DNA of 58,924 nt, filler included, from Candidatus Hydrogenedentota bacterium (GCA_040752395.1; 4 parts of 4 records of this genome joined end to end with filler, not necessarily neighbours in it); one strand, 5' to 3'. Shown: positions 30,881 to 44,973, counted from the whole stretch's first letter. Numbers and translations: made by a program. The notes: generated by a model not told the origin, from the sequence alone.

Positions 30881-31552
30881 TGGTTTATTATAATAAAGAT
30901 TAGCAGCGGCACAAAAATTACATCTATAAACGCATCCTCGTGAAGCATAAGCTTGTATCTCACGGTACTCGCAATTTGGTTCCCCTTGTAGAGCGTATTT
31001 ATACCTTGATACATCGTTATCCTCAGGCCATGGTAGTTTATTAAAATCTACAAGTTTTGTATTTCTGTTTCCATCAAAACCCGGGATAGTAGCTATGGCT
31101 TTCCCTTTGATAAATTCAAGGATGCTTTCTTCATATTCGCCTGATACAGTATGGTCTATTATTCTCTTTTCAAGCAGGTCTTTATAAAAAAATGTTGCAT
31201 AAGCGCCTGTAAATATGACTATACAATTAGTATCCCTCTTTACATAATTTGCTACTTTTAAATCTTCGGTAATTGTTCTTGCTGAAGGTTCCATTATAAG
31301 GATATCAGGTTTAATGTTCAGTATAACAGAGTAGAGAACCTCAGCATCTAATTTATTAAGACAGCCATCAATAAATCTGACATTATGATTAGTTTCTTTT
31401 TTTAAAAGAGATGATGTATAAGCAAGTTCCCAGGGATAATAAGTAAAGACTTCAGAATAATTTTTCACACCAAACGACCACCTGGATGGACTGTGAACGA
31501 TGTAATACCCATTAGAATCAATACCTATTGAATTAGCAAGGACTATATTCAT
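30881..31552 (-). CDS. B12-binding domain radical SAM protein, 3' truncated
   Basis: PWELAY, TGAYAT, GEYE, SRGCVYRCNFC (CxxxCxxC). Confidence 0.88.
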
Positions 31553-31650
31553 TGGCTTGTTTTTCTCCTTCTGAGTTACCCGGGTTCGCAGAGTCGGATA
31601 AACCCCCTTTTGCCTGGATAAATCCGCTCCTTTGTGAGGGATACATCATT

Positions 31651-33018
31651 TTAAAGATACACACTACTTCTTTCTTCAAACGCACAGCAAACCTGATTTC
31701 TGCCCTGTTTTTTGGCTTTATAGAGCATTTTATCAGCTCGTTCAATAAATAGTTCCATATTCGTTGCATCGTCAGGATAAGTTGCTACACCTATACTGAT
31801 AGTTATTTTTATCTTTTTATTATCGCCTATGTCGAACTCAGTCTCCTCTACCTTTCTCCTTAATCTTTCTGCCACAGCTCTGCCACCAATAGAATCAGTT
31901 TCTGGTAATAATAAAGCGAACTCTTCACCACCATATCTACAGGGGATATCAATATCACGCAAACCATTCTTTATTATAGAACCTATCTTTGAGAGTATTC
32001 TATCGCCTGCGCGATGGCCATATTCATCATTTGCTGGCTTAAAGTGGTCGAGGTCGACCATAAGCAATGTTAATCTGTGACTATATCTCTCAGCTCTATG
32101 CATTTCTATCCTGAGTCTATCAATGAAATATCTTCTCAAATAAAGATAAGTAAGGGTATCTGTAATTGATTGTATATACAGCATAGCATTAGCTAATGAT
32201 ACAGCGACCTGTCTTGATGCTGCTTTAATCAGTCTCTCATCATCTTTTGAAAAAATATATCCTTCTTTTGAAATAACACTCAGATATCCAAACTTTCTGT
32301 CGCCGAGTTCGATTACTTGAATATTAAAATCTTTATTTTCTTCTTCTCGCACAGATGCCCAGAACTCATTCACCCATCTGGCCAGTACAGTAAATTCATC
32401 TTCGGACTCTCTCCTGTATTCCTCAATATCATTAATATTAATATTAAATTCTCCTATCTCCCCTTCTTTTTTTATCTTGCTTAGGACAAGAATGTTTTTT
32501 GTATCCGTGTCTATCGTTATCAACGATACTGAGCCTGGGTCAAGCATTTCATAGAGTCCCGAGACCACTGCTTTTCTTAAGGTGGTAATGTCAAGTGACA
32601 TACCTATATACTCAAGAAATCTATAAAGTTTCAATATCTCAAAATTATCTTTTTCAAGTTTGTTTATCTTTTTTAAAAGACTAAAAATCTCTTTGAAATA
32701 TACCAGATAACCATTAAATTTGTTAATATCCTGTTCATCAAAATGAAATTCATCATTAAAAACAATTCCAAGGCTCATAGTTTCTTCTTCATAGCTCAAA
32801 TCTACCTCAAAATAATTTTTAAAGGTTTTAATATTATCCAATCTTATATCTTTTCTGTTTTGATAATGTATCATCCCATTATAATCATAAACAATCATTT
32901 TGACTGATTTATCCAGTTTAGTAAGAACCATATTTAATATTCTATATAAATCATTGATATCTTTTGTTTTTATAAGAGATTCCTGTGCCACATTCAAAAA
33001 TAACTCAGTGAAAATCAT
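31651..33018 (-). CDS. GAF-like + GGDEF diguanylate cyclase
   Basis: DLDHFK, RDID I-site, RYGGEEF, ISIGVA, ADKMLYKAK. Confidence 0.93.
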   Translation of the reverse strand: MIFTELFLNVAQESLIKTKDINDLYRILNMVLTKLDKSVKMIVYDYNGMIHYQNRKDIRLDNIKTFKNYFEVDLSYEEETMSLGIVFNDEFHFDEQDINKFNGYLVYFKEIFSLLKKINKLEKDNFEILKLYRFLEYIGMSLDITTLRKAVVSGLYEMLDPGSVSLITIDTDTKNILVLSKIKKEGEIGEFNININDIEEYRRESEDEFTVLARWVNEFWASVREEENKDFNIQVIELGDRKFGYLSVISKEGYIFSKDDERLIKAASRQVAVSLANAMLYIQSITDTLTYLYLRRYFIDRLRIEMHRAERYSHRLTLLMVDLDHFKPANDEYGHRAGDRILSKIGSIIKNGLRDIDIPCRYGGEEFALLLPETDSIGGRAVAERLRRKVEETEFDIGDNKKIKITISIGVATYPDDATNMELFIERADKMLYKAKKQGRNQVCCAFEERSSVYL

Positions 33019-33024
33019 TTATTT

Positions 33025-33429
33025 TTACTCTTCAATAGTTTTCGTAGCTATTGATATTCTCCTTATACCGCTCTGTTTAGCTATATCCATTATCTCAACG
33101 ACCAGACCATGCGGAATACTTCTATCAGCCCGTAGTACAAGAGGGATCTCTCTTTTGACGTTAACAATCTCTTTAATCATATCGCCGAGTTCATCGAGGT
33201 TAACAAGATTTGTTTCAAAATAGATATTCCCATTCTTATCAACACTGATATTTATATTATTAGCATCTTTATCAGCCTTTTGATGAGAGCCGGGTAACTC
33301 AAGTTTCATACCGGAAAATTTATCAAAAGTTGTAGCAACTGCAAAAAATATAAGCAGCTGAAATATAACATCAATAAGAGGTGTAATATTAATGCCCAGT
33401 AATTTTGTCTTCTGCCATTTAAACCTCAT
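33025..33429 (-). CDS. exbD: ExbD/TolR family protein
   Basis: INITPLIDVIFQLLIFF, LRAD. Confidence 0.9.
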   Translation of the reverse strand: MRFKWQKTKLLGINITPLIDVIFQLLIFFAVATTFDKFSGMKLELPGSHQKADKDANNINISVDKNGNIYFETNLVNLDELGDMIKEIVNVKREIPLVLRADRSIPHGLVVEIMDIAKQSGIRRISIATKTIEE

Positions 33430-34072
33430 CCTCTCTCTTTTTCCTTAACCTCCTTAAAACAGTAGACGAACATTTTTCCATCTCAAGAACTATTATGGAT
33501 ACCCTGCTCTCAAAATAATTATAAAATACAAGTGACGGTATGCCTATAGCAAGTCCGAATACTGTAGTTATTAAAGCCTCATATATACCACCTGATAATC
33601 TGCTTGGGTCACCAATTCCACCAGCAGCTATCTCAGTATAAACCTTCTGAAGTCCAAGCACAGTGCCAAGTAGTCCAAGAAGCGGTGCGGCAGTAGCTAT
33701 GGTTTCCAGTAAACCTAACCCCCGCTCAAGCGAAGCAACCTCTCTCCTCGCCTGCTCCTCAATATATTCCCGGGATAAATCCGGGGAGGAATCACACTCT
33801 TCTATGGCTACATTTAATATATTTGAGAGACAGCAATGATTATTATTGATAATTTCTTTCAAAATATTTATATCTTCCATACCTCGCATCGTAGAGATAA
33901 ATGTTAATATCTCAGGAGGGAATACTTTTTTTCGTCGTAGAGATATATATTTTTCTATAACAATAGCTAACGCTAATATTGAACATATAAGCAAAGGATA
34001 CATACAGATCCCGCCTAATCTGAACCATTCAAATGTATAATCCATCCATTGAATAAGTACATCACGCATCAA
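33419..34072 (-). CDS. exbB: ExbB/TolQ/MotA proton channel protein
   Basis: APLLGLLGTV, GIYEALITTVFGL. Confidence 0.9.
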   Translation of the reverse strand: MMRDVLIQWMDYTFEWFRLGGICMYPLLICSILALAIVIEKYISLRRKKVFPPEILTFISTMRGMEDINILKEIINNNHCCLSNILNVAIEECDSSPDLSREYIEEQARREVASLERGLGLLETIATAAPLLGLLGTVLGLQKVYTEIAAGGIGDPSRLSGGIYEALITTVFGLAIGIPSLVFYNYFESRVSIIVLEMEKCSSTVLRRLRKKREDEV

Positions 34073-34077
34073 TTAAG

Positions 34078-34222
34078 CCTCCTCTGAAAAACATTGTAAC
34101 TATAATAATATCAAGTAGAAGCAAGAAGCAAGAGGCAAGAAGCAAGATAACGGAANNNNNNNNNNATAACGGAAGAAGTGAGAAGTATCAGGACAGGCTT
34201 TAGATTGCAGGCTACAGGCTCC
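34078..34222 (-). repeat. Modular repeat copy supplying the exbB SD; contains a 10-N scaffold gap
   Basis: Reverse complement matches 8155-8242, including ttgatattattatagttacaatgtttttcagaggagg. Confidence 0.9.
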
Positions 34223-34253
34223 TTCGAAAAAGTTCGAGGTTCGAAATTAGAAG

Positions 34254-36176
34254 TTAACTCAATTTATGAATACTTGCCTCAATAAAAATTCTAAATAAAT
34301 CTTCGTCTATATTACCTGCTTTTACCTCATTCTCCATTATCTGAACAGCTTTCTCAGCAGGTATCGCTTTTTTATATGGTCTATCCCTGGCTGTAAGAGC
34401 ATCAAAGACATCAGCGATAGCCATAATCCTTGATTGTAAGCATAGTTCATCACCTTTTTTACCAGTTGGATAACCTTTACCTGTCAGTTTTTCATGATGG
34501 CCATAAGCAATTTCAGGAACATTCTTTAAATCTTTGGTCCATGGTATCTTTGACAAAAACTCGTAAGTATGAACAACGTGTGATTCTATTTCTTTACGTT
34601 CTTTGTCGCTTAAACTACCCTTTTTAATAGATAGATACGTTGCTTCATCTTCTGTCAAATATGGTTTTGTGCTATTATCAATATCAGTATATTCTTTTGT
34701 TTTTATATCATTAATAATATTAATATTCTCATTGGGTAAAACAGTAGGTTCATTCGCCATCTCAATAATTTTTAGATATACTTCAAGTTGATCGTGCTCC
34801 TTTTTTATAATATCATTAATTTCTTCGCTTATGTAAGTAATTTTATCTGATGGTATTATGTTATTAATGATTTTTTTAATATTTGAAAGTTCAATGGTAC
34901 GTTTTATAAATTTGAATCTTTCTTTAATTAATTCAAATTGCCAGGGGTATAATTTTTTTGCTTTTACCAGGATATCTTCTTTTACTCCGATCTTGCCGAA
35001 GTCATGCAATATCGCAGCATATCTCAATTCTCTTATCTGTTCATCTGTAAAATAAACTTCTTTATATTTTCCTGTTGTAGTTCTATTCACAGCTTCAGCC
35101 AGTGCAACACAATACAAAGCCACACGTTCAGAATGGCCCGAGGTAGTTGGGTCACGTGATTCAATAGCGGTCATAGATGCTTTTATAAAACCCTCAAACA
35201 ACTTCTTTATATTTTCATATAGCAAAGTGTTTTCATAAACTACTGCAGCCTGATTCGTAAGTGATAATAATATTTTCTGGTCATCCCTTGTAAATGGTAA
35301 TATCCACTGTTCAACTTCAGGGAGGTCATTTTTTATAGGAGTGGTATATCCTTCTGAACGTTTATTTATCAATTGAACTACACCTAATATCTCATTATCT
35401 TTGTTTTTCATTGGAACAGTAATCATAGATTTCGAGCGATACCCTGTTATTTTATCGAATTCTTTATTGAACGAAAATCCCGGTGTTTCATCCATTTCAT
35501 AGACATCAGCAATGTTTAAAGGCTCGCCTGTTAATGCCACATAGCCTGATATACTTTTATCACTTACCGGTACAACAAATTCTTTTGATTCGATTTTTAT
35601 AGAATCATTCTGAGTTAATTTTGCTTTTAAGACTTTTTTCCCATCCTCTGATTCTTCTATTAAATATAAAGTACCTGCATCAGCATTAGTAATCTCTCTG
35701 CATTTTTCAAGTATAAGGTATAATAACTTATTTATATCTTTTTCACTTATTAAAGAGATACCTATATTTTGTAATTTATATAATTTCTCTGTTTGTTCTT
35801 TCTGGCCTTTGTCTACCCTTTCTAAGGTAATACTATATTTAAGTTTTTCCATTATCAATTTTATATAACTGCACATAACATCAGGAGAAATATCCAAAGG
35901 CAGACAATACACTTCTTTAAACTCTTTCCAAATTGAGCTTTTATCATCTCCAAGAATAACAACTGGATTATCTTTGATTTTGTTAATCAGGGTAGCTTTA
36001 TCCTCATCAAAATTACCATCACCCCCAAATATAATAATGAATCTATCTTTTGAAATGTCTTTAATCTTCTGGATATGTTTAAAAGTAATATTTTCTTTTT
36101 GAAAAATATTAGTCAGTTCACTTTTTACATTATCAGACAACCTGTACAAATATAAAGTATATAAAGAATAAAACAT
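34254..36176 (-). CDS. GAF + HD-GYP c-di-GMP phosphodiesterase
   Basis: TGYRSKSM GAF motif, ESRDPTTSGHSERV, HDFGK, HHEKLTGKGYP, RPYK; start ATG 36176 preferred. Confidence 0.92.
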   Translation of the reverse strand: MFYSLYTLYLYRLSDNVKSELTNIFQKENITFKHIQKIKDISKDRFIIIFGGDGNFDEDKATLINKIKDNPVVILGDDKSSIWKEFKEVYCLPLDISPDVMCSYIKLIMEKLKYSITLERVDKGQKEQTEKLYKLQNIGISLISEKDINKLLYLILEKCREITNADAGTLYLIEESEDGKKVLKAKLTQNDSIKIESKEFVVPVSDKSISGYVALTGEPLNIADVYEMDETPGFSFNKEFDKITGYRSKSMITVPMKNKDNEILGVVQLINKRSEGYTTPIKNDLPEVEQWILPFTRDDQKILLSLTNQAAVVYENTLLYENIKKLFEGFIKASMTAIESRDPTTSGHSERVALYCVALAEAVNRTTTGKYKEVYFTDEQIRELRYAAILHDFGKIGVKEDILVKAKKLYPWQFELIKERFKFIKRTIELSNIKKIINNIIPSDKITYISEEINDIIKKEHDQLEVYLKIIEMANEPTVLPNENINIINDIKTKEYTDIDNSTKPYLTEDEATYLSIKKGSLSDKERKEIESHVVHTYEFLSKIPWTKDLKNVPEIAYGHHEKLTGKGYPTGKKGDELCLQSRIMAIADVFDALTARDRPYKKAIPAEKAVQIMENEVKAGNIDEDLFRIFIEASIHKLS

Positions 36177-36181
36177 CTCTT

Positions 36182-36313
36182 TTATATCTCTCCCCCGCCA
36201 ACCGGCAATAATATCTTTACACTGTCTCCATTGTAAAGCCTTTCGTCCCATTTTAACTGAACATTGACAAAGGGGCTCTTTAACCCGGCAAACATCTCTA
36301 CTTCTACTCTCAT
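36182..36313 (-). CDS. 43-aa truncated MoaD/ThiS-like (beta-grasp) ORF
   Basis: Manual translation MRVEVEMFAGLKSPFVNVQLKWDERLYNGDSVKILLPVGGGEI; below ORF-track cutoff. Confidence 0.6.
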   Translation of the reverse strand: MRVEVEMFAGLKSPFVNVQLKWDERLYNGDSVKILLPVGGGEI

Positions 36314-36372
36314 AATAAATCTTTACTTATTATAGTTTTATCATTCATTTTTTGGCAACAAAAATTCTACTA

Positions 36373-36398
36373 TAAATTTATAAAACAACTGCCGATTA
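36373..36398 (+). promoter_or_regulatory. Possible sigma28 promoter, near-leaderless, for the serine hydrolase
   Basis: TAAA-N14-GCCGATTA ending 10 nt before ATG 36409; no SD. Confidence 0.4.
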
Positions 36399-36408
36399 AA
36401 ATAATACA

Positions 36409-37440
36409 ATGAGAGGAATTATATTTTATATTCTCCTGGCGAGTGTCCCGATATATTATTCTATTCTATCATTATCCTGTAATAATTCTATTATCGCAGA
36501 TCCATCGAGCCCATTTTCAGAAATCTCAACTATTTCTAAATACGATATTAAAGAAGAAAGTAATACTGCTAATTTAAGACCATTCTCTGTTCCTGAACTC
36601 GATCTCCCATCTTTTCCCGGGACGCAATCAAAAAAAATAGATTGGAATAGCGCTGAGACCAGAATAAAAAAAATAATAACGAAATATAAAAAGGCACGAA
36701 TTGGATTGGTAGTAAAAGACCTCAATACAGGTTATACTATAAAACACAATGCTGATGCCTCTTTTGCATCAGCTTCGCTTGTTAAAATACCCATTGCTAT
36801 AACTCTATTTAACGAAATCGCTAATGGTACCATCCCGCCAAACATAACCCCACTTTATGAAGAGAAACATCGGGCAGGCGGTAGCGGCGTTCTAAGAACA
36901 GAAAAAGCCGGCCAAAAAATTCACCTCCAGGATTTAGTCTATCTTATGCTCGCAAAAAGTGATAATACCGCTACTAATATTCTCACCGACTTTATAGGTA
37001 TGGATAAAATTAATAAAATATGTAAAAAATATGGTTGGAATAATACGAACATTGTACGACAAGTGATGGACCTTAAGGAACGCAAAAATGGGGTTGAAAA
37101 TTGGACCACAGCAAGAGATATGGCTTCTATGCTGGAAGCGCTTTATAATGGTAAGGTTGTCTCGCGAAATACTTCTAATATCATTCTGAGATTTATGTTG
37201 AACCCACCTATAGATGATAGACTCCCTCGTAAACTACCCTCAAGTATCGATGTTATCCATAAAACAGGTCTTATTTATGATAACGCCCACGATGTTGGTA
37301 TTCTCTATTTACCCGGTAATCAACCTGTTATTGTCTCAGCACTGGTTGATAACATCCGCAGTGATTATCGTTATGCAAAATATTTAATAGCTAATATTGC
37401 AAGAATAATATACGAGGAATCAGTACCGAAATCTGTCTAA
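36409..37440 (+). CDS. Class A beta-lactamase-like serine hydrolase (possible lipoprotein)
   Basis: SLVK (SxxK), SDN, KTG; signal-like N-terminus ending LSLSC; no ExxLN omega-loop motif. Confidence 0.85.
   Translation: MRGIIFYILLASVPIYYSILSLSCNNSIIADPSSPFSEISTISKYDIKEESNTANLRPFSVPELDLPSFPGTQSKKIDWNSAETRIKKIITKYKKARIGLVVKDLNTGYTIKHNADASFASASLVKIPIAITLFNEIANGTIPPNITPLYEEKHRAGGSGVLRTEKAGQKIHLQDLVYLMLAKSDNTATNILTDFIGMDKINKICKKYGWNNTNIVRQVMDLKERKNGVENWTTARDMASMLEALYNGKVVSRNTSNIILRFMLNPPIDDRLPRKLPSSIDVIHKTGLIYDNAHDVGILYLPGNQPVIVSALVDNIRSDYRYAKYLIANIARIIYEESVPKSV
37358..37439 (+). repeat. Direct repeat 1a (82 bp, 3' end of serine hydrolase gene)
   Basis: Identical to 38246-38327. Confidence 0.97.
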
Positions 37441-37452
37441 TAAAAAGCTTTA

Positions 37453-37481
37453 TTGACATAAATTAAAATTTTTAGTAGAAT
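37453..37481 (+). promoter_or_regulatory. sigma70 promoter of cassette A
   Basis: TTGACA-17-TAGAAT. Confidence 0.8.
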
Positions 37482-37619
37482 ATTTTTTATAATGAGAAAA
37501 GAATTATCCTTAATTAATTTCAGGAGAAAGTATATCCCAAATGCCAATTCTTATCAGTGCTGGAAACGAAATGGGAGTGAATTCTCCTATCATAACTATT
37601 TTACAGAGGTATTCACAAA

Positions 37620-37841
37620 ATGGATAGCCAACTTGAAATAAAAGACATAACAAGGTTATATAAAGATGAATGGGTTTTACTTATATCTCCTAAGGTGGAG
37701 AAGGCAAAGATAAAAGAAGGGAAAGTAGTATTTCATAGCAAAGATCGAGGTGAAGTTCATAGAAAGCTACAAAGCTTCAAAGGGAATAAAGCATTAGTCT
37801 ACACAGGCAAAGTTCCTGAAAATGTAGAGGTAATTTTATGA
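37620..37841 (+). CDS. Small DUF5678-like protein
   Basis: YKDEWVLL...KVVFHSKDR; ATGA overlap with protease. Confidence 0.65.
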   Translation: MDSQLEIKDITRLYKDEWVLLISPKVEKAKIKEGKVVFHSKDRGEVHRKLQSFKGNKALVYTGKVPENVEVIL

Positions 37842-38239
37842 CAACTATCGAATTTGATGCTACAAAGAAACTTATATTTTTAGATGCTGGTATTATTTCT
37901 ATAGATGGTTCGGAGATATTCTATGTGCCAGTAGTTATGGATACAGGCGCAACAGTTACTATTTTGTCTCCTGACCTTCTTGTAAATTTGGGATATGATC
38001 CAGCGTCTCCCAATTTACCTAGAATAAGAATGATAACCGGAAGTGGAGTAGAATATGCTCCTTGTCTGATTGTTTCGGGACTGGTTGTTGGAGAAGAAAG
38101 GGTGAATAATATTGAGATTTTATGTCATGATCTGCCAGTGGAAGCAGGCATCGATGGTCTGCTTGGAATGAACTTTCTTAATAAGTTTGATGTTATTGTA
38201 GAACACAGTTCAAGTCAATTTCACCTTAAGCCAATATAA
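37838..38239 (+). CDS. Retropepsin-like (clan AA) aspartyl protease
   Basis: MDTGAT catalytic motif, DGLLGMNFL. Confidence 0.88.
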   Translation: MTTIEFDATKKLIFLDAGIISIDGSEIFYVPVVMDTGATVTILSPDLLVNLGYDPASPNLPRIRMITGSGVEYAPCLIVSGLVVGEERVNNIEILCHDLPVEAGIDGLLGMNFLNKFDVIVEHSSSQFHLKPI

Positions 38240-38245
38240 TCATAG

Positions 38246-38327
38246 GCAGTGATTATCGTTATGCAAAATATTTAATAGCTAATATTGCAAGAATAATATA
38301 CGAGGAATCAGTACCGAAATCTGTCTA
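38246..38327 (+). repeat. Direct repeat 1b
   Basis: Identical to 37358-37439. Confidence 0.97.
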
Positions 38328-38351
38328 TAAAAAGACACTTCATTAGCTTCT

Positions 38352-39962
38352 TCATTCCTCTATTCCACAGAGTTCTACGTTGCCCTCTTCCATAACTAAT
38401 TTGATTTTCTCTTTTTTTAAAATATTATGTATCATATTTAATCTCTCTTCTGTTAAAGCTGTTCGATGAATTACTATATATTTTATATCTTTCTTTTTTA
38501 AAATATCAAGCCATTCGTTTTCTTTAAAATTTAATAAACAAAAATATTCGTTTTCATAATCTTTTGGTATAAATCCTGAATATCCATTATACAACCCCAT
38601 CCAGTGGAACGAACTAAAATAAAGATAATAACCAGAATAAATTGAGTGTAATGGTAGCATTATTACCCCTGTATTTTTAGAGAGATTAGAAAGAAAGTAA
38701 TTTATTTTACTTTTCTCTGTTAAAAGTGGTATTTGCTGAGTATTAATCTTGATATAGGGGAATATCATAAACTGAACTATTAAGATAATTGTAACAATTA
38801 TCCTTCTGTATTTTAATTCTAATATTTTATTGAGCATAATCCCTGATAATATACTCATCAAAAATACAGCCAATACATAAGCTCTCCATACAGCACGCAT
38901 CCTTTTTAATGGTTCGAAATATTTATAGAAAAATATATAGGGACCATTCGTACCAAAAGAAACCACTATATAAAATATTAATAAAGAAGAAATTAATATC
39001 CCATAATGTTTATCAGTTTTAAAAGAAAGGTACAGCCCTGCAATACTTAATAGAATCAGAATAAACCCTGGAAATAGATGAAGTGGCCGTGGATATAAAA
39101 GTTCTCCATCGCTAAAGTTTTTTTTGTACGAGGATAAATATTGCGTAAAATTTAATGAATCATTAGCAACTTCTTGTATGCTCCGTTCCATATTATGCTC
39201 TTCCATCACTTTGGAATAGAGTTTATATACCGGATAATTAAGTACAAAAGTCAGAATAAGTGATAATAAATAATGATGAGCAGCCGGCCGCTTAAATAAA
39301 AAAATGATTAAAAAGATAAGGTAGCCAAAAATTAAAAATATAAAATAATACCCGGCCTGTATATATTGACAGAAAAGTATCACATTCGAATAAATCAACC
39401 ACCTGAGTTTTAATGTATCATTATATCTGAACAAACACAGAAAGAATAAACTTATAAACCCGGTGAATATCAACTGCGGTGAAGCAAAAAAATTATATCT
39501 GACAGGCGTTAATAAAAATAATAAGCTCACAATAAGAGATGTAGTAGGATTTCTAAAAAGATATTTTGCAAGAATATAGTGAAATACACCTGAGACTACT
39601 AAAGAAAGAAACAATATAAAATTATACGTCAAAACATCAGACCATTTAAATAGTTTAATAAGGATAGCAGCTATAAACCCGTTAAAAAATTCTATATCAG
39701 AAAATAATAAAGTATGTTTATTTGGATAAAAATTATTGGTATTTAATAGATTAAAAGGATTATGAAACAATGTTTTAGCATACCATTTATACAGCCAGAG
39801 ATGTAAAAAGTGGTCGCCTGTCTTAAGATATATTACGGAATGAAAGAAAGATGGGAGAACCCAATAAAAATAAAGAAAAATTAAAAGAGAAAAAAATAAA
39901 ATAACCAGAAAATATTCTAAAAATACTTTTTTATTGATTTCTTTATCTAAGAGGTGACTCAT
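38352..39962 (-). CDS. Multi-pass membrane protein, GT-C / YfhO-like glycosyltransferase
   Basis: GDH...W, FYP...LLFSD, many TMs, MRAVWRA, NGYSGFIP. Confidence 0.7.
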   Translation of the reverse strand: MSHLLDKEINKKVFLEYFLVILFFSLLIFLYFYWVLPSFFHSVIYLKTGDHFLHLWLYKWYAKTLFHNPFNLLNTNNFYPNKHTLLFSDIEFFNGFIAAILIKLFKWSDVLTYNFILFLSLVVSGVFHYILAKYLFRNPTTSLIVSLLFLLTPVRYNFFASPQLIFTGFISLFFLCLFRYNDTLKLRWLIYSNVILFCQYIQAGYYFIFLIFGYLIFLIIFLFKRPAAHHYLLSLILTFVLNYPVYKLYSKVMEEHNMERSIQEVANDSLNFTQYLSSYKKNFSDGELLYPRPLHLFPGFILILLSIAGLYLSFKTDKHYGILISSLLIFYIVVSFGTNGPYIFFYKYFEPLKRMRAVWRAYVLAVFLMSILSGIMLNKILELKYRRIIVTIILIVQFMIFPYIKINTQQIPLLTEKSKINYFLSNLSKNTGVIMLPLHSIYSGYYLYFSSFHWMGLYNGYSGFIPKDYENEYFCLLNFKENEWLDILKKKDIKYIVIHRTALTEERLNMIHNILKKEKIKLVMEEGNVELCGIEE

Positions 39963-39994
39963 TTTTCAATAAGTATAGTTTCTACAATATCACC
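39952..39994 (-). repeat. Direct repeat 2a (43 bp)
   Basis: 42/43 identical to 40723-40765. Confidence 0.95.
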
Positions 39995-40028
39995 CTGCAC
40001 GTCATCAAGTATCAGAATTCCCATGGTT

Positions 40029-40271
40029 TTATAATTCCGTTTCTAATAATATATTTACTATTTCGGTGATTACTTTTTGAATATATGGCATATCCGATGC
40101 AACAACTTTATCTTTAATATGAAGTTCACTATTATCCCTGAAAACAATTTTCCCTTTTATTCTGAATATTATTCCGCCACGATCTTCTATTTCAAGTTTA
40201 CTGGTTAATCTATATGGTGCTTCATTGATACAATTTTCAAAATCTGTTAAATAGTCTTTTATCCCCGGCAT
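40029..40271 (-). pseudogene. DUF6516/TumE-like toxin with apparent in-frame internal deletion
   Basis: N-terminal IKGKIVFRDNSEL joined directly to C-terminal HIKDKVVASDMP...VITEI; RYDN..HH/PHHKH core absent. Confidence 0.55.
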
Positions 40272-40558
40272 ATTTCAATACTTGAAATCGCTTTAAGTTT
40301 CCGTTCTATTTCTTTTGCAGCCTTGCATTCGGCAAACCAATCAAAAGTCTCTTCTGTTTCTTCAATCTCGCCTTTTTTAAGTTTCTTAATAAAATCATTC
40401 GATTTAATCTTAAACTTTTTTTCGAACTGTTTTATAATTTTTGCCGTTTTCTTATACGCGTACCTGAGTTTCCTCTTTTCTTCATCAAGACTCTCAGCAA
40501 CAAATCCCTTCACAAATTCAAAGTCATCAGTGATACTTCTTATTTTAAAACTAATCAT
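40259..40558 (-). CDS. Putative antitoxin (TumA-like)
   Basis: FEKKFKIKSNDF...GEI...FDW pattern; overlaps the toxin-like gene. Confidence 0.6.
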   Translation of the reverse strand: MISFKIRSITDDFEFVKGFVAESLDEEKRKLRYAYKKTAKIIKQFEKKFKIKSNDFIKKLKKGEIEETEETFDWFAECKAAKEIERKLKAISSIEICRG

Positions 40559-40722
40559 TTTATATCGCCCCCTGTTAATTTTTTAATTTATTAAGTATTG
40601 CCTTAATTTTGTCAATCATAATGTTTTCTGACTATGTATCATTACTGATTTCTATTCAAAAAACTCTATAATGGTCTTCTCTTTTAAGATATATTAGAGA
40701 ATGAAAAAAAGAAAGGGACACC

Positions 40723-40765
40723 AGGTGACTCATTTCTCAATAAGTATAGTTTCTACAATATCACC
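40723..40765 (-). repeat. Direct repeat 2b (3' end of moeA)
   Basis: 42/43 identical to 39952-39994. Confidence 0.95.
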
Positions 40766-41953
40766 TTTTTTGAAAATACTATCCCCTTCTGGTATCACAG
40801 CAAACCCATGCGCAGAAACCATAGATTTTATTCTTCCTGACCCTTGTGCTCCGGTCTGATATGCTTGTGGAATATTATTATCCCAGCTAAGTCTTACCCT
40901 TAATAAATTAACCCTATCACGCGTGGTTTTAAAATCAAATCCGAGTCGAGAAAATATAACTTTGGGTAAAACATCCTTTATACCAAGCATCTTTTTCATC
41001 GCAGGCCTTACAAAAATTTCAAAAGAAACCATACAAGAGGCTTGATTGCCCGGTAACCCAAAGACCGGTATCCTGTTATCCAGCACACCAAATGTGAATG
41101 GTTTACCCGGCTTCATATTAACCCCTGAGAAAAGAACCTTTATCCCTGCCTTATTAAAAGCATCTTTAACAAAATCATAATCTCCAATAGATACCCCACC
41201 AGTAGTTATTATACCATCAAAATCAGTTAACCTTTTTAAAACTCTATTTAATTGTTTTATATCATCCTTTACAATCCCGAAATCAAAAGCACTACCCAAA
41301 GAAGAGATAACAAGTGAAGATATAGAATAACTATTCGAGTTTCTTACACAAAAATTGGGTAGTGGAAAAATACTAACAGGTACAACCTCATCACCAGTTG
41401 ATATAATAGCGATTTTTGGTCTTTTTTTAACTCTTACTTTATCAATGCCGCAGCAAGCTAAAAGCCCAATAAAAGGGGCATCTAAAACCTCACCCTTTTC
41501 AATAATCTTTTGACCTTTTCTGATATCCTCACCTTTGAGTCTTATATTTTCGCCTCTTTTTGGTTTATATTTTATCTTCACTCTATCTCCACTAACCTCT
41601 GTATATTCTTTCATTACCACAGCATCTGCACCCGGGGGTAGCATCGCACCTGTCATTATTCTAACTGTTTCGCCGATTCTAATACGCCTGAAGTAAAGTG
41701 ATGATTGTCCAGCTTGTATCGTTGCGACAATCTTTAACTCAATATATGCCTTTTTATAGAAATCTTTAAAATCACTGCACCTAACAGCAAAACCATCCAT
41801 AGCAGAATTATTATACGCTGGCAGGTCTTCTCTGCAAATAAGGGTCTCACTTATAACCCTTTTGTATGCTTCTTTTAAAAAGACGAGCTCTGTCTCTTTT
41901 AATTCATTAATACTATTTAAAATTATTTTGCGTGCCCTATCTATCGTAATCAT
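40730..41953 (-). CDS. moeA: Molybdopterin molybdotransferase MoeA
   Basis: SAMDGFA, IMTGAMLP, STGDE, TGGVSIGDYD, MKPGKP, GLPGN. Confidence 0.95.
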   Translation of the reverse strand: MITIDRARKIILNSINELKETELVFLKEAYKRVISETLICREDLPAYNNSAMDGFAVRCSDFKDFYKKAYIELKIVATIQAGQSSLYFRRIRIGETVRIMTGAMLPPGADAVVMKEYTEVSGDRVKIKYKPKRGENIRLKGEDIRKGQKIIEKGEVLDAPFIGLLACCGIDKVRVKKRPKIAIISTGDEVVPVSIFPLPNFCVRNSNSYSISSLVISSLGSAFDFGIVKDDIKQLNRVLKRLTDFDGIITTGGVSIGDYDFVKDAFNKAGIKVLFSGVNMKPGKPFTFGVLDNRIPVFGLPGNQASCMVSFEIFVRPAMKKMLGIKDVLPKVIFSRLGFDFKTTRDRVNLLRVRLSWDNNIPQAYQTGAQGSGRIKSMVSAHGFAVIPEGDSIFKKGDIVETILIEK

Positions 41954-42290
41954 TCTTTAATGTTGTAGTGCTCCCTGTTTGTCGAGACATTTTTTAGTAA
42001 ATTTTCGGCACATTTTGACCTGACCATTCTAAAAACAATTCATCCTGACATTATTCCGGCTGACATCCTGTCAGTCTCTCTTCCTTCTCCAACTTCCTAC
42101 CAAAACACCATCTCCCACCCCAAAACAATTTTACGCTGCTAACTCTTCACACCTCTCATAAATTAATTGCTCAAACTCAACTTTTACTACCAAATTTTCG
42201 TCCTCTGCTTTCTTTTTGGAGCCCCGCAATTCATTTGAACTGTTTTTATCAGCATCCATCTTTTTGATACACTTTAATTTTTCTACCATT

Positions 42291-42384
42291 AGGCACAGAG
42301 TATCAAAGACACACACAAGAAAAAACTTTGTGCCTTTGTGCCTCTTTTCCTCCCCTTTAAAGTGTCTCACGTTTCAGGGGAGCA
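42291..42384 (+). repeat. Repeat modules (ggcacaa/ttgtgcc heptamers + segment shared with 27225-27262)
   Basis: ctttgtgcctttgtgcctcttttcctcccctttaaagtgtctcacgtttcaggggag. Confidence 0.8.
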
Positions 42385-42402
42385 GTATAATGCCTTCTTA
42401 TC

Positions 42403-43029
42403 TCAAGTGTCCGTATCTCGATGCTGAATCTTTATAATAGTTTCTGCTGCAAAAAGTCTTCTTAAATTATTAATCATTATAAAGATGTTTTTCCCCCTGT
42501 ATTTAATGATAAAAATAGATAATACAATAGAAATAGCAGTAATTAAGAGACTTATAACAGGTGATATACATAGAAGAGATACGTTAATCATAACAAATAA
42601 TATCTCAAGTATGCTAAAGATCCAGTTTTTAAAACAATGAGGTGATAGATTTATACTTGAACGAATACTTAATTTAGTAAAAAGGCTGGTCAGAGTTATT
42701 ATCATTGCTATAAAATATACAATAAATTTAAAAGCAAAAATCTTATGTGGATACGCAAGGTAAAAAATTAATACAGAGATAGCGGGTCTGATTGGTATGT
42801 GAAATATTTCCCAGATAACATCAACCCATGGGTTTTTATCCACGATAAATTCAACCAGAAACAAGACAATCATAAATAAAAAGATGATGGGCGAAAACGC
42901 AATGAAACCTCCCACACTCAGCCATCCCTTGATCACAACTACAAATAAAAGAATAAAAGTGATATAAGAATTGATGCCTGTTATAAAAGGTACAACTATA
43001 ATAAAAGATAGGTTTAATAAAGCATTCAT
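42403..43029 (-). CDS. DUF4126-like membrane protein
   Basis: GINSY, VEFIVDKNPWVD, HIPIRP. Confidence 0.75.
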   Translation of the reverse strand: MNALLNLSFIIVVPFITGINSYITFILLFVVVIKGWLSVGGFIAFSPIIFLFMIVLFLVEFIVDKNPWVDVIWEIFHIPIRPAISVLIFYLAYPHKIFAFKFIVYFIAMIITLTSLFTKLSIRSSINLSPHCFKNWIFSILEILFVMINVSLLCISPVISLLITAISIVLSIFIIKYRGKNIFIMINNLRRLFAAETIIKIQHRDTDT

Positions 43030-44973
43030 CTGTCTTGTTTGTCTGTTCTACCCTGGTATAAAATAGTTTTAATAATATTTTCTAATTTTGCATCTTTATT
43101 TTCACTTAATTTCAGTGCTTTTTCAAGATAAATTATACCCTCTCTATCCCCTGACTTAAGTAACGAAATCCCGGTATGATATAAATAATGTGGGTCCAGT
43201 GGGTTCAAAACAGATGCTTTTACAAAATAAACCTTAGCTTCTGCAAACTTATTTCTAATGAAGTTTATCATACCTAACCTGTAATAAGTTTTATGGTCAG
43301 ATATATTCATTTTTATAATTTCAGAATATAATCTTTCACTTTCTTCTAATCTGTTCATATAAAATAAAGTTTCAGCGATCTCATTGAGCACATTTTCGCT
43401 TGTTGTAAATCTAAGAGCCTCTATTAAGTGATTGATAAATAAAATATCATTCTTCTCCTGTGCATATTTCAGGACAAGCGAGATATTTTCAGGATACATA
43501 TAATTTTTCTTTAATAATTTCAAGCAGATTTCTTTTATGCCCTGATAATTACCTTGATTCCAGTATATCTTTAAAACCGTATCAATGGTGGTTTTATCAG
43601 GTTTTACTCTGAACAAAGCTTTTTTGAATAATTGTGTCCCATATTCTTGTTGGATGCCTTTATAAACAGAAGCAGCAACATTAAGATAAGGTTCTAAAGC
43701 TCCGGAACGTAATCTGTGCGAGATATAATACCATTTAGAAGCTTCAAAATATCTCTCTGTTGTAAAAAAAACTTCACCAAGATGATAAATAGCATTAACA
43801 AAATATGGGTCTATCTTCCTTACTTTATGATAAACTTCCACTGCTTCTTGTATGTTTTTATTGTCTTCATAAATCAAGCCTTTTTGAAAAATAGTAAATG
43901 AGTCATCATCTTTTAATGCGGTTGAGTTACTGTAATATGTTAAAGCCTCGTTCTTCTCACCTCTATCTCTTAATGAATCAGCTATCTTTATATAAGAAGT
44001 AGCAATGAATTGTTTTGTAAATGTGAAGAATAATAATATAGATAAAACAATAAGAATTAAGATTCGCATGTTATTCTTATAGCCTTTGTCTTTCAAAGTG
44101 CAGGAATTGATTGATACTGGTGAACTTGCAAGAAGTCCCAGGATATAAAAGAACATCCATCTGGAAACAGGAACCCTGAAATTAAAATTAAAAAAAGAAT
44201 CGACAAGCGAGGCAATCACCCCAACAATAAGAAAATAAAAAATACCGCCATTATACCTTGCTAATTTTATCCCTTTATAAAAATAACTTAAAATAAACAC
44301 ATAAAATATCGCTGAAGCAAAAAAACCAAACTCGCAAAAGTTCTGCAGATGGTCATTGTGGGCTCTAACAACCGTGATAATACCAAGAAAATCTATGTCT
44401 TTTTCAGCCCAGATGTCCCTGTAATACCTGTAATGTAAAAAGAAATTAGCACCACCTACACCAGTTAAAAAATTATCCCTGAAAATATCAAGCCCATCTT
44501 TCATTAACCTCAACCGAACCTGTATGTTAAAATCTGATCTCACCCTTGTTATAAAACGCTCATACTTTATAATCGAAAACAAAATCAAAGTAATAACAAG
44601 TAAAATCATCAAAATACCAAAATATCTTCTTTTTAGATTATTAAAAACAAAGATAAGAAGTGAGATGGCTGTCCCGATACCAATACCAAGAATAGCACCC
44701 CTTGTTGAAGCTAATTTTAAAGCATATAACGTGATAAGCATAGCTGTTAAAGAAAGTATTCTAATAATAAAAATTCTCTCTTTCATAACAAGGAATAAAG
44801 CCATAGGTAAAGCAAGTTCAAGATAATGAGATAAAACATTCGGGTTTCCAAGCCCTGATTGTACAGTATATCCAAATAATGGTATATTCTTTGTCTTTAA
44901 TATATGAAATCCAGCATTAATAGAGGCTGCTAACACAAAAATAAAAAGAAGATATTTATCTCTTGCCTCTTTT
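43026..44973 (-). CDS. O-antigen ligase (Wzy_C) family protein with C-terminal TPRs, 5' truncated
   Basis: GNPN, STRG, GVGGANF, RAHNDHLQ; TPR helices; frame open to contig edge. Confidence 0.85.

Follow-up and report, generated by a model that had tools for sequence, protein, structure and literature searches.

Toxin-antitoxin-type cassettes between duplicated gene junctions of a Candidatus Hydrogenedentota genome resemble insertions with long target duplication

Long target duplication was reportedly described together with restriction-modification gene complexes by Nobusato et al. in 2000 (Gene 259:99). This class of insertion is compared here with two small gene cassettes, each lying between two copies of a host gene junction, in a 58.9-kb stretch of DNA from Candidatus Hydrogenedentota bacterium (58,924 nucleotides, in the following termed the window). 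The window consists of four contigs joined by N spacers and originates from a draft genome of 349 contigs with a size of 2.84 Mb, a GC content of 34.8% and a completeness of 94%; both inserts are located within the single contig C305 (window positions 30881-44973). In their sections on this class, Furuta, Abe and Kobayashi (2010, PMC2853133) describe insertion with long target duplication for restriction-modification genes, with repeats that often span start or stop codons. The same sections set a repeat length of more than 30 bp as a requirement, give nine cases from an intraspecific comparison and contain the suggestion that DNA breakage made by the cargo drives the insertion of restriction-modification genes (PMC2853133). 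A review from 2013 gives the route for restriction-modification systems only (PMC3874152). Judged by titles and abstract openings, no paper was found in the literature in which toxin-antitoxin (TA) modules were inserted with long target duplication.

Several other systems share individual features with these inserts. Integron cassettes are small and compact, are sometimes equipped with their own promoter, have a 3' boundary near the stop codon and lack a recombinase of their own, and chromosomal integron arrays include self-promoted TA cassettes. In contrast, the inserts described here have no shared attC-like site, each of them being bounded by a different host sequence in the form of unrelated copies of host genes, and they are scattered among housekeeping genes instead of being arrayed by intI, with no IntI-sized recombinase nearby. 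The minimal mobile elements of Neisseria are whole-gene cassettes between conserved housekeeping genes that have no mobility gene and probably move by means of transformation and flanking homology. They are defined by allelic replacement between strains and are not known to carry a target duplication, whereas duplication is present in the inserts described here, which for this comparison come from one genome only. In homology-facilitated illegitimate recombination, one homologous anchor and one illegitimate joint can insert foreign DNA. Finally, transformation creates tandem duplications through integration between sister chromatids, according to the pertinent part of Johnston et al. (2013, PMC3784515). 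Such duplications would resemble the present ones in that host recombination acts on incoming DNA, with pairing at two non-collinear places across sister chromatids; they differ in that those given in that part of PMC3784515 comprise 100-900 kb between copies of insertion sequences (IS), whereas the present ones comprise 0.05-0.9 kb around a cassette.

The original prediction for this region, namely two gene-end-duplicating inserts of 0.7-0.8 kb, was confirmed, as both repeat pairs were found and the inserts measure 0.79 and 0.73 kb. Insert 1 is oriented on the plus strand, starts 5 nt past the stop codon of a beta-lactamase-family gene and ends 1-2 nt ahead of the second copy of a direct repeat of 93 nt (37353-37445 and 38241-38333; 96% identity, spacing 888), which contains an exact core of 82 nt at 37358-37439. 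The two copies differ by a 1-nt indel at the stop codon, which is followed by TAAAAAG in both. Insert 2 is oriented on the minus strand, separates the moeA gene (40730-41953) from a gene encoding a membrane protein of 536 aa (38352-39962) and is bounded by a direct repeat of 43 nt (39952-39994 and 40723-40765; 98% identity, spacing 771). Each copy of the 43-nt repeat comprises the 3'-terminal 36 nt of moeA together with the start of the downstream gene, which overlaps them in the sequence ATGA. Originally, the moeA stop codon and the start codon of this gene overlapped as ATGA, and the repeat represents this very junction. The features of the region are as follows:

36409-37440, plus strand: host gene 1, beta-lactamase family, 343 aa (Pfam Beta-lactamase2, E 1.2e-60); its last 88 nt lie within repeat 1 copy 1
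37353-37445: repeat 1 copy 1, functional 3' end of host gene 1, stop codon included
37453-37481, plus strand: promoter-like site of cassette 1 (TTGACA, 17 nt, TAGAAT), 11/12 positions matching, the best site in 37300-40800
37620-37841, plus strand: cassette 1 gene 1, 73 aa, putative antitoxin or partner (weak Pfam match DUF5678, E 0.0025, under the curated cut-off)
37838-38239, plus strand: cassette 1 gene 2, retropepsin-like aspartic protease of 133 aa (Pfam Asp_protease_2, E 1.2e-11, above cut-off)
38241-38333: repeat 1 copy 2, redundant 3' end of host gene 1, stop codon gone through a 1-nt deletion
38352-39962, minus strand: host gene 2, open reading frame (ORF) for a multi-pass membrane protein of 536 aa; start codon within repeat 2 copy 1
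39952-39994: repeat 2 copy 1, with the functional start of host gene 2 and the region upstream of it, and a redundant copy of the final 36 nt of moeA
40029-40271, minus strand: cassette 2 gene 2, putative toxin of 80 aa, TumE-like (TM 0.71 in a structural match with a TumE-family cluster)
40259-40558, minus strand: cassette 2 gene 1, 99 aa, TumA-like putative antitoxin (NCBIfam TumA, E 9.3e-6)
40672-40712, minus strand: decayed piece left over from host gene 2, from its 5' coding region (83% identity to 39811-39851, E 2.4e-8)
40723-40765: repeat 2 copy 2, with the 3' end of moeA in functional form and a redundant start of host gene 2
40730-41953, minus strand: host gene 3, moeA, molybdopterin molybdenumtransferase, 407 aa (Pfam MoeA_N, MoCF_biosynth, MoeA_C)

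The inserts had not been recognised as a named class of elements, which has to be revised with respect to their layout, since this is the layout of insertion with long target duplication as presented in the corresponding sections of PMC2853133. Both window inserts are bounded by unique direct repeats longer than 30 bp, lie within the limit of 20 kb and have no mobility gene within or beside them. The likeness extends to the cassette size of a few kb or less, to the variable length of the genome-unique repeats, which is in the order of 100 bp, to the intact neighbouring genes and to the cargo, which is putatively of the addiction type; moreover, two restriction-modification cases (C304 and C315) were detected in the same genome. 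The differences concern the cargo, which consists here of small two-gene TA-type modules, mostly with RNase-type toxins, in place of restriction-modification genes, and the number of cases, which amounts to about 25 in a 2.8-Mb genome versus the nine given in those sections of PMC2853133. By their layout, the inserts therefore appear to fit the named class, the class-defining comparison with an empty site lying outside this one genome; what is new is the TA cargo and the high density within this class. The features expected of DDE transposons, IS elements or miniature inverted-repeat transposable elements were not found, as the duplications comprise 43 and 93 nt and no inverted repeat was present at the cassette ends among the 12 listed pairs.

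The two genes overlap by 4 nt in cassette 1 and by 13 nt in cassette 2. The protease of cassette 1 matches the PADLOC family PDC-M08B (E 4.4e-13), which is a defence candidate only, and the NCBIfam family clan_AA_DTGA under the cut-off. In the case of cassette 2, the TumA match reached 25.8 bits versus a cut-off of 100, supplemented by a match to PADLOC PDC-M44A (E 2.4e-6), and the TumE-like protein, the model of which has a pLDDT of 0.66, matches PADLOC PDC-M44B (E 0.0017). The TA-type assignment of both window inserts is weaker than that of the other catalogued TA loci. No recombinase domain was detected by Pfam or NCBIfam in the genes of the window inserts. The leader of cassette 1 contains an ORF of 49 aa (37492-37641) that is probably not a gene, because it is not conserved in the related cassette of a Nitrospirota genome (L040, see below), the leader of which does not align. 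The membrane protein of 536 aa had been labelled a GT-C glycosyltransferase, for which no Pfam, NCBIfam or PDB sequence match was obtained.

The genome was searched for further cases by a whole-genome self-BLAST with a minimum length of 30 nt, a minimum identity of 85%, a gap of 200-4000 nt and no further genomic copy. This search resulted in 30 direct and 1 inverted unique pairs, which excludes chance as an explanation for the repeats; 164 direct and 34 inverted pairs were obtained when multi-copy families were included. The two window repeats are present in two genomic copies each, with the partner as the only match (median depth of other hits at most 1). The 30 unique direct pairs correspond to 28 loci, comprising 19 TA-type loci, two restriction-modification loci, one unknown two-gene locus (C57) and six loci with other cargo, so that about two dozen inserts were added to the two that had been predicted. 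Apart from the window inserts, the TA-type call was based on Pfam matches at E <= 1e-4. The TA-type cargo includes ParE with an addiction antitoxin, Phd/YafQ, three PIN modules, nine HEPN or HepT nucleotidyltransferase pairs, two DUF4160/DUF2442 pairs, HicAB, DUF6036 and both window inserts, and the six other loci contain a LacI regulator, a sulfatase with a methyltransferase, paralogous genes and unclear cases. A k-mer scan added the loci C168 (PIN), C228 (HEPN), C341 and C212b. For comparison, 1.8% of random segments of 0.7-2.5 kb fully hold a TA-homologous block and sequences homologous to the cassette proteins account for 1.2% of the genome, where the set of homologues was built from the cassettes themselves and represents a lower bound on the TA content. 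The catalogued inserts span 0.55-2.9 kb, with no island remnants among them. Candidates removed from the catalogue were C3, in which paralogous genes encode binding proteins, C114 and C235, where the repeats lie inside a single gene, C297 with its tandem paralogues, C292, the repeat of which is multi-copy, and C198, C232, C61, C96 and C281, the repeats of which measure 121-127 nt and were read as assembly artefacts.

The repeats have a length of about 30-206 nt and mostly 86-99% identity, and in every case it is the junction of the two host genes at that place that is duplicated. The duplicated piece can represent a 3' end (bla, queC, hisF and the chorismate synthase gene), a 3' end together with the next start (moaA and moaC, moeA and the next gene), a 5' end (the GNAT gene, C58) or the ends of convergent genes, and C295 likewise involves a 5' end. 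Since the repeats span the ends of the neighbouring genes, both neighbours are intact. A duplicate of the final 43-82 bp of the host gene, as originally noted, does not represent the general form, which is a two-gene junction that can include 5' ends, as in C58, C295 and insert 2. The orientation of the cassettes is independent of the neighbouring genes, and the co-orientation noted in the window does not hold in general, as the cassettes of C80, C296 and C57 run against the adjacent genes. When the junctions of 27 cases were inspected by eye, without a formal motif search, no common motif was seen, and the catalogued repeats have no common core, in agreement with the predicted lack of a shared att site. 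The cassette 3' end is located at most 10 nt from the last stop codon in 9 of 20 cassettes, versus none of 19 on the 5' side (Fisher p = 0.001), where 30-391 nt are kept; the 3' boundary overlaps host-derived DNA in three cases. Insert GC content was lower than that of the flanks in 18 of 27 cases, higher in eight and tied in one, and is not informative. No near-identical copy of the cassette coding regions was found elsewhere in the genome, by which intragenomic copy-and-paste was rejected, and the cassette 2 proteins have no kinship with those of the C57 cassette (E 0.16 and 1.3).

The redundant copies of the junctions are decaying. In insert 2, the remnant at 40672-40712 is located 90 nt nearer to the core repeat than its counterpart, which reveals a 90-nt deletion in the redundant copy, and the duplication once covered no less than 150 nt of the downstream gene. 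At the opposite boundary of this insert, host-derived DNA apparently resumes 2 nt past the stop codon of the TumE-like gene, a start point judged by eye; a moeA remnant at 39995-40026 that was likewise suggested by eye was not reported by BLAST at E <= 0.05. Internal deletions were also present in the redundant copies of C16 (246 nt), C58 (286 nt), C279 (727 nt) and C317b (103 nt). With deletions of 90-727 nt, the original duplications must have reached at least about 0.4-0.9 kb, so that the present lengths understate them; such sizes are typical of homologous recombination substrates. High-copy intergenic repeats containing heptamers (100-220 copies) account for many contig ends, and 10 of 27 catalogued inserts have a short interior match to repeats present on many other contigs, the bounding repeats being unique. 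The association with heptamer repeats that had been suggested as a check was not observed in the window, as neither insert has an interior multi-copy hit to heptamer or mosaic repeats.

Three further loci were noted. C341 (L038, 943-2426) contains two tandem HEPN/nucleotidyltransferase modules with clearly diverged HEPN N-termini that share an identical stretch of 92 nt, consisting of the HEPN 3' end and 16 nt beyond; this is what would be expected if one module had used the 3' end of the other as homologous anchor. C304 (L022, 1465-4634) comprises a methyltransferase gene and a gene for a 409-aa protein without Pfam match between direct repeats of 121-124 nt. The first of these repeats has its start within the final 19 nt of a tRNA-Pro gene; beyond the tRNA, at a distance of 1.8 kb, lies a broken tyrosine-recombinase gene. 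This single case may be integrase-mediated. C315 (L024, 3675-6468) encodes a methyltransferase-nuclease fusion and an MjaI-family restriction enzyme between direct repeats of 205 nt with 90% identity that correspond to the 3' portion of a ParB-HTH gene; their second copy finishes at the contig end.

Genes for mobility and uptake enzymes were searched with profiles of seven families only. Phage_integrase gave three matches in the genome, none of them on contig C305, two being Xer-like in size and the third being the broken gene near the tRNA-Pro of C304, and DDE_Tnp_1 gave three matches, all on other contigs. The predicted absence of a recombinase therefore holds for C305. No match was obtained for Ku, RVT_1 or the TnpB zinc ribbon in profile searches of the 94%-complete genome. 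The RNA-templated route that had been suggested is not supported, given this lack of an RVT_1 match and the presence of a -35 box within the unit that was transferred. The genome also has ComEC, with two matches, and DprA. A plasmid origin was rejected, as a tblastn search of a plasmid collection with the protease and the 99-aa protein gave no match to either.

Cassette 1 recurs in an unrelated Nitrospirota metagenome-assembled genome, L040, where its two genes are 86% and 83% identical at the nucleotide level, with 83% amino acid identity, and the protease gene is frameshifted. As the L040 genome does not contain the gene for the 536-aa protein, cassette 1 moved horizontally. The homology between both cassettes extends from the -35 box, located directly after the first repeat copy in both genomes, to the stop codon of the protease gene, with a leader from the promoter to the first gene that does not align. 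In L040 an unrelated TPR gene precedes the cassette, which comes after the stop codon of that gene and lies between direct repeats of 121 nt with 87% identity. Among the protease homologues of 25 genomes of the Nitrospirota phylum, 2 of 18 loci are flanked by direct repeats, the second being L055; both were ruled out as clean target duplications by further copies of their repeats. With one scoring procedure, 11 of 28 HEPN loci were found to be flanked by direct repeats in the Hydrogenedentota genome, two of them by multi-copy repeats, versus 5 of 27 in 14 unrelated genomes, only two of which have repeats of at least 84% identity. HEPN matches number 27-28 in this genome versus at most five in each of 40 others. 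A search of 40 genomes that share only the domain yielded just short chance-like matches, and two metagenome scans for relatives, with the 536-aa protein and the protease as queries, found none.

A different arrangement was observed in L105 (G042:C159, 2240-3702) upstream of a histidine-kinase gene, where a repeat, a HicAB-like pair, a second repeat, a MazEF-like pair and a third repeat follow one another. The three copies of this 75-nt repeat (92% and 81% identity, spacings of 689 and 699 nt) contain a ribosome-binding site together with an ATG and a DUF2442-like N-terminal word, and the repeat is multi-copy in several genomes of the phylum. L105 looks like the outcome of serial insertion at a single target, or else like an array of cassettes with a gene-start fragment as its boundary.

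We lean slightly towards the view that host recombination, and not an enzyme encoded by the cassette, makes these insertions and that addiction retains the cargo. A cassette consisting of its own promoter and two TA-type (addiction) genes would enter between two host genes by means of host recombination enzymes. This could occur through a circle in which the cassette is joined to a copy of the local junction and which is integrated by a single crossover. It could also occur through a linear fragment, probably from outside, with one end joined by homology and the other by an illegitimate joint across two sister chromosomes. Either route would leave the junction sequence on both sides of the insert and provide each neighbour with a complete end, and later the redundant halves of the copies would shrink through deletion and mutation while the needed parts remain. 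The repeats would make the inserts easy to lose by recombination, so that mainly cargo that kills the losers, i.e. TA and restriction-modification modules, would persist; the proposed reason for the cargo bias is that repeats invite a loss that addiction modules punish. This explanation fits the long original duplications, their decay by deletion, the absence of motifs and mobility enzymes, the occasional ordinary cargo and C341. Non-addictive cargo such as the LacI regulator and the sugar-modification genes is in agreement with a route that does not depend on the cargo, and cutting of DNA by the cargo is an unlikely driver because most of the toxins are RNases. The general recombinase-free route that had been predicted is supported within this genome.

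Several observations weigh against host recombination as the source of the inserts. To within 3 nt, cassette 1 has the same left end, at the -35 box, in two genomes; sharp cassette ends such as this one and the 3' ends near the last stop codon in 9 of 20 cassettes (versus 0 of 19 on the 5' side) could point to a defined step of excision or insertion rather than to sloppy recombination; deletional trimming is proposed as their explanation. In insert 2, a 43-nt core of 98% identity stands beside an extension of 83%, a contrast for which simple neutral decay does not account. The repeat that flanks the cassette in L040 has a third copy in its own genome, the repeat of L055 belongs to a family that is multi-copy across several genomes, and only about a third of the TA loci of the Hydrogenedentota genome are flanked by repeats, if the HEPN loci (11/28) are taken as a guide. 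As ComEC and DprA also match in 10-11 of 14 control genomes and are near-universal among them, their presence says little about competence. Moreover, we infer the direction of events, i.e. insertion rather than another rearrangement, from the arrangement itself.

The sharp ends could reflect an unrecognised dedicated machinery, host-encoded or acting in trans, that inserts cassettes from promoter to stop codon at gene boundaries. In a transposition-like or Cas1-like manner, it would make widely spaced staggered cuts, the filling-in of which gives long target duplications that vary in length. Besides the shared left end of cassette 1 in two unrelated genomes, the 3' junctions near the stop codon in 9 of 20 cassettes and the very high insert density in one genome speak for such a machinery. 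It is nevertheless unlikely, since neither a common end motif nor a terminal inverted repeat was seen, the repeats of about 30 to more than 200 nt, originally at least 0.4-0.9 kb, are far beyond known staggered cuts, no candidate enzyme was detected among the seven searched families and ordinary genes occur among the cargo. That one dedicated sequence-independent process, based either on a mobility enzyme of a new class or on a repair pathway put to a new use, lies behind the roughly 25 inserts as well as the long-target-duplication events reported since 2000 is a slightly more doubtful proposition.

Another explanation would regard the inserts as remnants of site-specific integrative islands at gene 3' ends, with an integrase that was deleted or acts in trans, as in cis-mobilizable elements (CIMEs). 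Integrases often duplicate gene 3' ends, and the start of C304 in the last 19 nt of tRNA-Pro next to a broken integrase gene conforms to this pattern. For the set as a whole, we consider such an origin improbable: the genome contains only three tyrosine-recombinase matches, two of them Xer-like in size, about 25 unrelated targets would require about 25 specificities, some of the repeats are located at gene 5' ends or between convergent genes, and inserts of 0.55-2.9 kb show no trace of islands, with neither an integrase on C305 nor a common core among the repeats.

Host recombination as outlined above treats the duplication as a product of insertion; alternatively, it could have been the precondition, if a short tandem duplication of the junction, arising by slippage or unequal crossing-over, had been followed by the illegitimate capture of foreign DNA at the joint. 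The resulting end structure would be identical, deleted redundant copies would fit as well and no circle with host DNA would be needed. This course would demand that two rare events take place at the same spot on about 25 occasions and likewise has a small probability. No insert-free junction duplication was observed among the unique direct pairs, a result limited by the minimum gap of 200 nt, which would miss such duplications. It is very improbable that the repeats are assembly artefacts, i.e. a small circular episome threaded into a contig through a stretch shared with the chromosome or misjoined strain variants: the draft nature of the 349 contigs with exact 127-nt repeats read as artefacts and the position of the second repeat copy at a contig end in C194 and C315 would suit them, but in most pairs the copies are distinguished by substitutions and indels (86-99% identity), deletions are present in redundant copies and most repeats fall short of the apparent k-mer of 127, so that junction-spanning k-mers must exist.

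These data bear on the old question of how TA and other defence modules arrive at ordinary sites of the chromosome when no carrier element brings them there. Long target duplication is the only described route with this layout; it has had no accepted mechanism since 2000 and has been tied to the cutting of DNA by restriction enzymes. The about 25 independent junction pairs of the Hydrogenedentota genome, mostly with RNase-type toxins as cargo, separate this route from DNA breaks made by the cargo. They also suggest that the duplications began much longer than they are now and that the cargo bias may reflect easy loss via the repeats, prevented by addiction. With respect to genome annotation, short duplicates of gene ends beside small gene pairs can mark recent acquisition.

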